33,080 bases of DNA from a virus (lineage: Duplodnaviria; Heunggongvirae; Uroviricota; Caudoviricetes), in IMG/VR virus record IMGVR_UViG_2896601577_000002. One strand, written 5' to 3'. The notes beneath the pieces were generated by a model. It was not told the DNA's origin. It ran no database searches and saw only the letters and a program-made list of their open reading frames with translations. The translations under genes were made by a program, and so were the position numbers. Shown here one piece after another: positions 17,713 to 18,529 of the stretch; position 1 is the stretch's first letter; each line of letters opens with the position of its first letter.

Positions 17713-18529
17713 AACTGGAAGATTTACCGAAATACTACTCCCCAAAATCCCCTAGCCTGACCGATGCATCGGCCTCAACGTCAAAAGATGCGCTGAGTAT
17801 CACTGATGTGATGGCCGCGCAGGGCATGACACAGAATCGGGCTGAGATGGGGTTTTCTGCGTTCCTGGGGAAAATGGGCATCAGTATGAATGACAGGGCG
17901 CGGGCAACAGAATTACTGGCAGATTATGCACTCAGTCGGTGCGATCGTGTGGCGGCGTTGAGAAAACTTCCGGCAGAAATAAAACCGGTAGTGATGCGCA
18001 TTATGGCTTCGTATGCGTTTGAAGATTATGCCCGTAGCGCGGCGAGCAAAAAACAGTGCCCCTGCTGTCACGGAAAAAATTTATTGAAAGCGAGGTTTTT
18101 ACAAACAAGATCCAGTATCCGGATGGTAAGCCACCAGTGTGGGCAAAGTGCACAAAAGGCGTGTATCCGTCTTACTGGGAAGAATGGAAAAAAGTCAGGG
18201 AGGTGGTAAAAGTTGCCTGTCCGGAGTGTGGCGGAAAGGGTGAGGTTTCCACCGCCTGTAAGGATTGCCGTGGGCGTGGTGTCGCCATTCATCGTGAAGA
18301 GTCGGTAAAACGTGGTATGCCTGTTATCAGAGACTGCCAGCGTTGTGGTGGTCGTGGCTGTGAAAGACTACCATCAACGGAGGCATTTAATGCCATATGC
18401 AAAGTGACGAGTGCTATCACGCTTGATACGTGGAAAAAATCAGTGAAACGCTTTTACGATACGTTGGTGGTTCGGTTTGACATTGAAGAGGCATGGGCGG
18501 AGCGGCAGTTAAAGAGGGTAACGCGATAG
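17709..18529 (+). pseudogene. Q: late antiterminator Q-like protein, frameshifted at an A6 tract
   Basis: N-terminal part in frame 0 (ends ...CPCCHGK), C-terminal Zn-ribbon part (CPECGGKG...CKDCRGRG) in another frame; A6 at 18074-18079. Confidence 0.7.

Follow-up and report, generated by a model that had tools for sequence, protein, structure and literature searches.

Within a stretch of 33,080 nt of viral DNA (IMG/VR record IMGVR_UViG_2896601577_000002; the whole of it is hereafter called the window), the gene for an antitermination protein of the lambda Q type is divided between two overlapping reading frames at a run of six As. The locus raises the question of whether this division is a regulated or reversible frame switch, an error in the data, or simply a broken gene. 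The first-pass annotation had noted a switch of the Q-like reading frame at the A6 run at 18074-18079; it attributed the break to the loss of one base in the homopolymer, expected late gene expression to be blocked if Q is lost, and raised the possibility of reversible, slippage-dependent expression. Our analysis indicates that the locus is very probably an inherited pseudogene of an ordinary kind, created by a homopolymer indel and marking one stage in the decay of a Shigella boydii lambdoid prophage.

The frame switch lies at exactly the position first noticed. The run comprises six As in the context ...TGTCACGG-AAAAAA-TTTATTG... (with longer flanks, ...CCCTGCTGTCACGG-AAAAAA-TTTATTGAAAGC...), and the two ORFs, in different frames, overlap there (Table 1). 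Both matched the Pfam family PF03589 (“Antitermination protein Q”) above the gathering score, with E = 2.6e-22 for the upstream ORF and E = 8.2e-28 for the downstream ORF; inserting one A joined them into one protein of 273 aa, in which PF03589 matched two stretches (E = 2e-49, also above the gathering score). The downstream ORF holds three of the four CxxCxGxG-like motifs, together with the C-terminal half homologous to lambdaQ. The Q locus is a frameshifted pseudogene of the lambda-type Q family (PF03589): the uninterrupted full-length reading frame that characterizes the family is broken in the window gene by a 1-nt deletion. The heptamer AAAAAAT itself occurs 19 times in the window, against 8.6 expected; since it is so common, the motif carries no signal, and the signal is the frame break relative to the conserved homologues.

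Table 1. Features of the Q locus and point lesions of the prophage, in window coordinates.
Feature	Position	Strand	Remarks
DnaB-type replicative helicase, frameshift	15498-15500	+	gene 14628-16029; +1 C (CC to CCC), giving 292-aa and 163-aa pieces
DUF968 gene, nonsense codon	17161-17163	+	GGA to TGA; common to all S. boydii copies
Q antiterminator pseudogene, lambda-Q type with extra Zn-motif insertion	17709..18529	+	821 nt, not 822; PF03589 on both halves
Upstream ORF, 166 aa	17709..18209	+	native residues 1-123, then 43 out-of-frame residues and stop
Downstream ORF, 157 aa, other frame	18056..18529	+	native residues ~124-273
A6 tract, site of 1-nt deletion (A7 to A6) in the Q gene	18074..18079	+	ancestral A7 (GGA AAA AAA TTT); A6 in a subset of S. 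boydii copies
Candidate late promoter PR' and pause/qut-like region	18535..18578	+	alignment to lambda NC_001416
Intrinsic terminator, tR' candidate	18612..18635	+	CCCGCC-GCCT-GGCGGG, then TTTTTT; aligns with lambda tR' T-run
Late-region DNA methyltransferase, nonsense codon	19416-19418	+	TGG to TGA; subset of A6 copies

We also considered whether the two halves might be separate working polypeptides of a split gene, and rejected this. The GTG at 18056 has no convincing ribosome-binding site, the GTG at 18203 preferred by the gene callers has a GGGAGG directly abutting the start codon, and the two-ORF arrangement occurs rarely and is confined to particular lineages. Another A6 run (AGC-AAAAAA-CAG, 18047-18052) lies 22 nt upstream of the tract studied here; one variant (P0002, from one short read-run contig) is apparently frameshifted at this other run, with an identical out-of-frame tail.

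Among complete E. coli genomes, ~2,500 records carry an orthologue of this Q, as do several phages (Evi, mEp460 and one Stx2a-converting phage, where the gene is named quuQ). Every full-length relative listed had 822 bases, against 821 in the window, with the sole gap inside the A-run, and these relatives were annotated as one 273-aa “antitermination protein”. At the site, the intact alleles read either GGA-AAA-AAA-TTT (A7, G-K-K-F) or GGG-GAA-AAA-TTT (A5, G-E-K-F), and the existence of intact, in-frame A7 alleles indicates that an ancestral A7 has lost one A in the window. The loss of a single base proposed in the first pass was borne out in this way; that annotation had also left room for intact Q genes carrying the same A6, and the orthologues examined in related prophages have A7 instead. 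The intact 273-aa proteins of E. coli and Shigella lambdoid and Stx2a prophages (WP_000762880.1, ACD10232.1 and quuQ of Stx2_EH1910) are orthologues with 91-99.9% nucleotide identity, and they share with the window the neighbourhood DUF968-rusA-Q-methylase-tRNA; they are in frame, with A7 or GGGGAAAAA at the site, whereas the window gene is broken. The A-run is missing from five of the seven intact alleles sampled. Adding one A to the window gene gives, as had been predicted, a continuous product (...CPCCHGKKFIESEVF...) with all four CxxC motifs restored, and this repaired protein is identical to the S. boydii “antitermination protein” ACD10232.1 / B2TZ41_SHIB3, found on 222 contigs. Unlike repaired Q, the repaired DnaB, DUF968 and methyltransferase proteins were absent from the collection searched.

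Over 20.5 kb, the window and CP026867.1 are 100% identical, and the proteins that exactly match the truncated DnaB and DUF968 products of the window are named as Shigella boydii; to judge from these matches, the window is a lambdoid prophage in an S. boydii chromosome. Homopolymers are classic error sites, and a sequencing or assembly error in a genome that truly has A7 and an intact gene would produce the same broken frame. Nevertheless, the presence of A6 in independent assemblies makes a read error very unlikely: the exact 166-aa product and the A6 were found in the two complete genomes CP026866.1 and CP026867.1, in two independent drafts (LPTS01000149 and LPTH01000267) and in at least 25 Logan read-run assemblies, so that the other contrary outcome envisaged at first, reads showing A7, did not materialize. 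Moreover, A7 was read correctly in the assemblies of sister S. boydii strains, and a search with a 91-nt query located it at ~1,200 places in E. coli; the A6 state also agrees with an independent marker, at position 16292.

That marker is a single-T indel in an intergenic A/T run between an 85-aa ORF and DUF968. We retrieved S. boydii copies of the prophage via the broken DnaB fragment and compared them (L007-L012 and L014-L020) with the window; S. boydii copies are 0-5 substitutions apart over 6.25 kb. L014 and L016-L019 have A7 and a Q of 273 aa, which in L016 and L017 differs from that of the window by the extra A alone; the window, L007-L012, L015 and L020 have A6. Every S. boydii copy with A6 has the T at 16292, like E. 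coli SF-088, and every copy with A7 lacks it, making the indel a handy lineage marker. Since tract state is perfectly congruent with it, we infer one deletion event, clonally inherited.

The same change has also occurred elsewhere. When 5,426 complete E. coli genomes were searched with an A6-specific 34-mer, only two had A6: UM146 (UM146_RS25440) and MLI104K2 (NL420_RS13955). Both show A7 to A6 at the same site and are labelled “frameshifted” by PGAP. The UM146 gene is the SF-088 allele minus one A. The two have distinct SNP backgrounds, neither of them that of the window, which points to independent events or errors, and the adjoining DUF968 and methylase genes are intact in both, unlike in the window. 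A fourth A6 background, a DEC3D/F O157-like allele, appeared among the cluster members. Overall, A7 to A6 was seen on at least four allelic backgrounds, two of which (UM146 and MLI104K2) each rest on a single assembly and may be read errors. On these counts, A7 in this group of Q alleles is a mutational soft spot, hit rarely but repeatedly, as a homopolymer would be expected to be.

Because S. boydii has both A6 and A7, and A6 reappears on several backgrounds in E. coli, the run could also be imagined as a phase-variable switch, whose toggling between A6 and A7 would silence and restore late-gene or lysis expression within the population. We consider this extremely improbable. The tract state splits cleanly with the independent indel, as expected of one event, and tract length does not vary independently of descent among near-identical copies, as it would at a contingency locus, for which a run of 6-7 nt is in any case short. 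A6 is also very rare among complete E. coli genomes (just the two cited above), and DnaB is broken in all copies, so that the prophage cannot replicate regardless of the state of Q.

A different possibility is that the A6 allele is a “pseudo-pseudogene”, yielding functional Q through recoding, by either -1 ribosomal frameshifting or transcriptional slippage. In the frame of the upstream ORF, positions 18074-18080 read A_AAA_AAU, a formally slippery heptamer of the type X_XXZ_ZZN, and a -1 shift on it enters the correct Q frame. However, -1 frameshifting on AAAAAAU in E. coli was reported at 0.106% unstimulated, near a background of ~0.055%, at 0.108% with the IS911 stimulators, and at 0.9% with a strong IS3 pseudoknot (PMC4066793). 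No significant stimulatory fold was detected in the 100 nt downstream of the tract (z = -1.8; 11 of 200 shuffles fold as well), and Rfam returned no element at the Q tract. As a positive control from the same window, Rfam identified ALIL frameshift pseudoknots (120 bits) in both IS3-family copies (22673-22789 and 28188-28304). The transposases of this family, which use A_AAG with the ALIL pseudoknot, resemble the Q locus in having two overlapping ORFs and a -1 shift at an A-rich site, but they combine an efficient motif, a conserved pseudoknot and a conserved two-ORF architecture, and the Q site lacks all three. Beyond its slippery heptamer, then, the Q site has neither an efficient motif nor an evident stimulatory SD or structure. 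Its homologues are single, in-frame 822-nt ORFs, most of them without the run, and Q is absent from the conserved -1 frameshift candidates of Sharma et al. (PMC4066793).

Transcriptional slippage does operate in Shigella, in mxiE and the spa genes, but the bacterial cases described involve runs of ~9 A or T (PMC5009743), and the Q run has 6 nt. Recoding into a functional Q is, on this evidence, highly unlikely, although a trace of full-length Q may be made via the -1 shift on A_AAA_AAU, at about 0.1%. There is similarly little chance that the A7/A6 run works as a low-frequency reversible or leaky switch, with trace Q, from a -1 shift or from reversion of A6 to A7, occasionally firing the holin-lysozyme-Rz genes; if true, this would amount to rare altruistic lysis in S. 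boydii from a domesticated prophage. Neither programmed nor reversible slippage is supported at the Q tract, and the slippage-dependent expression first suggested for it is at odds with the clonal tract length, the near-background shiftiness of the A6T motif, the lack of a significant fold downstream and the poor conservation of the A-run.

We return to the reading of the locus as an inherited pseudogene, and to what the deletion removes. The repaired protein aligned with lambda Q (PDB 7UBM) with E = 1.2e-38, residues 1-113 corresponding to lambdaQ 1-113 and residues 182-273 to lambdaQ 116-207. The homology to lambda Q (PDB 7UBM/7UBN, 4MO1) thus extends over both halves, and it includes the CxxC...CxxC zinc site, C184/C187/C210/C213 aligning with the lambdaQ zinc cysteines. 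Unlike lambda Q, the window protein has an insertion of ~68 residues between lambdaQ residues 113 and 116, with an extra CxxC...CxxC pair, and its gene is frameshifted. The four CxxCxGxG-like motifs of the repaired protein lie at C117, C171, C184 and C210, and all cysteines are invariant across the eight alleles compared; a match to DnaJ_CXXCXGXG was sub-threshold. The break falls within the first zinc motif. The truncated product keeps the N-terminal half (lambdaQ 1-113), and it has lost three of the four CxxCxGxG-type motifs and the whole C-terminal half (lambdaQ 116-207). Given the loss of the zinc motifs and of this half, truncated Q is not expected to load onto RNA polymerase at PR' and carry it past tR'.

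The gene arrangement also matches that of lambda, with Q immediately 5' of a lambda-like PR' core and terminator and ahead of the lysis genes, the position typical of a lambda-type Q. The candidate PR' has a -35 TTGATT at 18535-40 and a -10 TAAATT at 18557-62. The block GGTAAATTTG...GATGGG is conserved between the window and lambda in the alignment, the lambda-like -10/pause block spanning 18555-18578, and its lambda counterpart holds the PR' -10 (TAAATT) and the pause-inducing region. Scanning for consensus promoters gave no sigma-70 site in the vicinity of Q, and the PR' assignment rests on the lambda alignment and on what is known of PR' in lambda. On the 3' side of the terminator, a strong one, lie a small ORF, the DNA methyltransferase gene, three tRNAs, and the genes for holin, lysozyme and Rz. 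Holin, lysozyme, Rz and a LexA-type repressor all have intact ORFs in the window; the late region therefore does not appear wholly dead, and the loss of Q could have had a phenotypic effect. As an event in the phage life cycle, however, the block of late expression foreseen in the first-pass annotation is moot: the helicase was broken earlier, and the window contains no terminase, portal or tail genes.

Two further observations were made in the late region. An STnc100 sRNA match (20527-20716, 127 bits) adjoins an iraM/PmrD-like gene on the minus strand (20742-21098), and the pair sits between the phage tRNAs and the esterase/lysis genes, as it does in E. coli FORC_069 and MLI104K2. The tRNA-Arg(TCG) gene (20285-20360) has a 1-nt deletion (CCCC to CCC) with respect to the sister genomes and the E. 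coli relatives, found only in the window and in CP026867.1. Rfam scores this gene as a tRNA at only 35.3 bits, while the adjacent tRNAs reach 53-72 bits. The deletion may reflect damage to the tRNA, or else a strain-specific or assembly difference.

Comparison with the intact relatives SF-088 and FORC_069 revealed four point lesions in the window, including that in Q (Table 1). The exact broken DnaB fragment was found on 131 contigs. The CCC of DnaB and the TGA of DUF968 were present in every S. boydii copy sampled, A7 copies included. The methyltransferase TGA, in turn, was present in only some A6 copies, and L020 has A6 with TGG, so the methyltransferase stop is later than the Q deletion. 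The window also carries seven IS copies, of the IS1, IS3-family, IS2-like, IS110 and IS66 families. The order suggested by this distribution is helicase and DUF968, then Q, then the methylase, and finally the changes specific to CP026867.1, namely IS insertions and tRNA damage. Two of the IS copies are near-identical 1310-bp IS3-family elements with 108-aa and 296-aa ORFs (22338-23647 and 27853-29162); the first of them splits a DUF1737/SASA esterase gene, and the sister genome CP026866.1 has neither. In the replication region, two in-frame differences from E. coli SF-088 were seen: a 6-nt insertion at 13365-13370 in the O-like replication gene, and, at ~13800 in the DnaC-like ATP-binding gene, a 21-nt tandem repeat (AATGGATGAGTTACGGGCAGA) that is one copy shorter.

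The history of the Q pseudogene can be outlined from these comparisons. One A was lost from the in-frame A7 (GGA-AAA-AAA, Gly-Lys-Lys), most likely by replication slippage, and translation now departs from the native frame following residue 123 and stops 43 codons on. The deletion arose once, in a sub-lineage of S. boydii, and was then inherited clonally; it struck a prophage that already carried the frameshifted helicase and the DUF968 nonsense codon, and the methyltransferase nonsense codon and then the IS insertions came after it.

Whether the loss of Q was neutral or favoured is a separate matter. It may be that inactivation was selected, the Q of a defective but still inducible prophage harming the host through the lysis cassette or through global antitermination toxicity; we regard this as possible but rather unlikely. 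The intact ORFs for holin, lysozyme, Rz and the LexA-type repressor are consistent with it, and the occurrence of A7 to A6 on at least four backgrounds could hint at selection over pure drift, although recurrence at a homopolymer is expected without selection. A parallel is offered by Salmonella Gifsy-1, in which IsrK indirectly activates the making of a toxic Q-like antiterminator, AntQ, that is toxic by itself in Salmonella and E. coli (PMC4825925). The window prophage likewise has a Q gene and an isrK-like RNA in its early region, but in Gifsy-1 antQ lies upstream of isrK, whereas the window Q lies ~6.4 kb downstream of the isrK match; AntQ is likened to the window Q by description, and serves only as a rationale for tolerated Q loss. 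The Rfam matches in question, to isrK (62 bits) and to C4 antisense RNA (75 bits), cover 11254-11439, inside or adjoining a Rha/Ash anti-repressor gene. Against selection, Q is still intact in most S. boydii copies even though they share the helicase defect (222 contigs have the unbroken gene, a few dozen the broken one), which suggests that any advantage of the loss was small. Loss of Q from a replication-dead prophage could thus have been neutral or mildly beneficial.

For this prophage, the finding matters little beyond annotation: the locus should be labelled as a frameshifted Q pseudogene in a multiply damaged, IS-ridden lambdoid remnant. Together with the other lesions, it forms a tidy, datable series of prophage decay within one lineage. 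The soft spot in the A7 run could matter in Stx phages where the same type of Q drives stx2a, since the same 1-nt loss is predicted to prevent Q-dependent transcription of the toxin genes.
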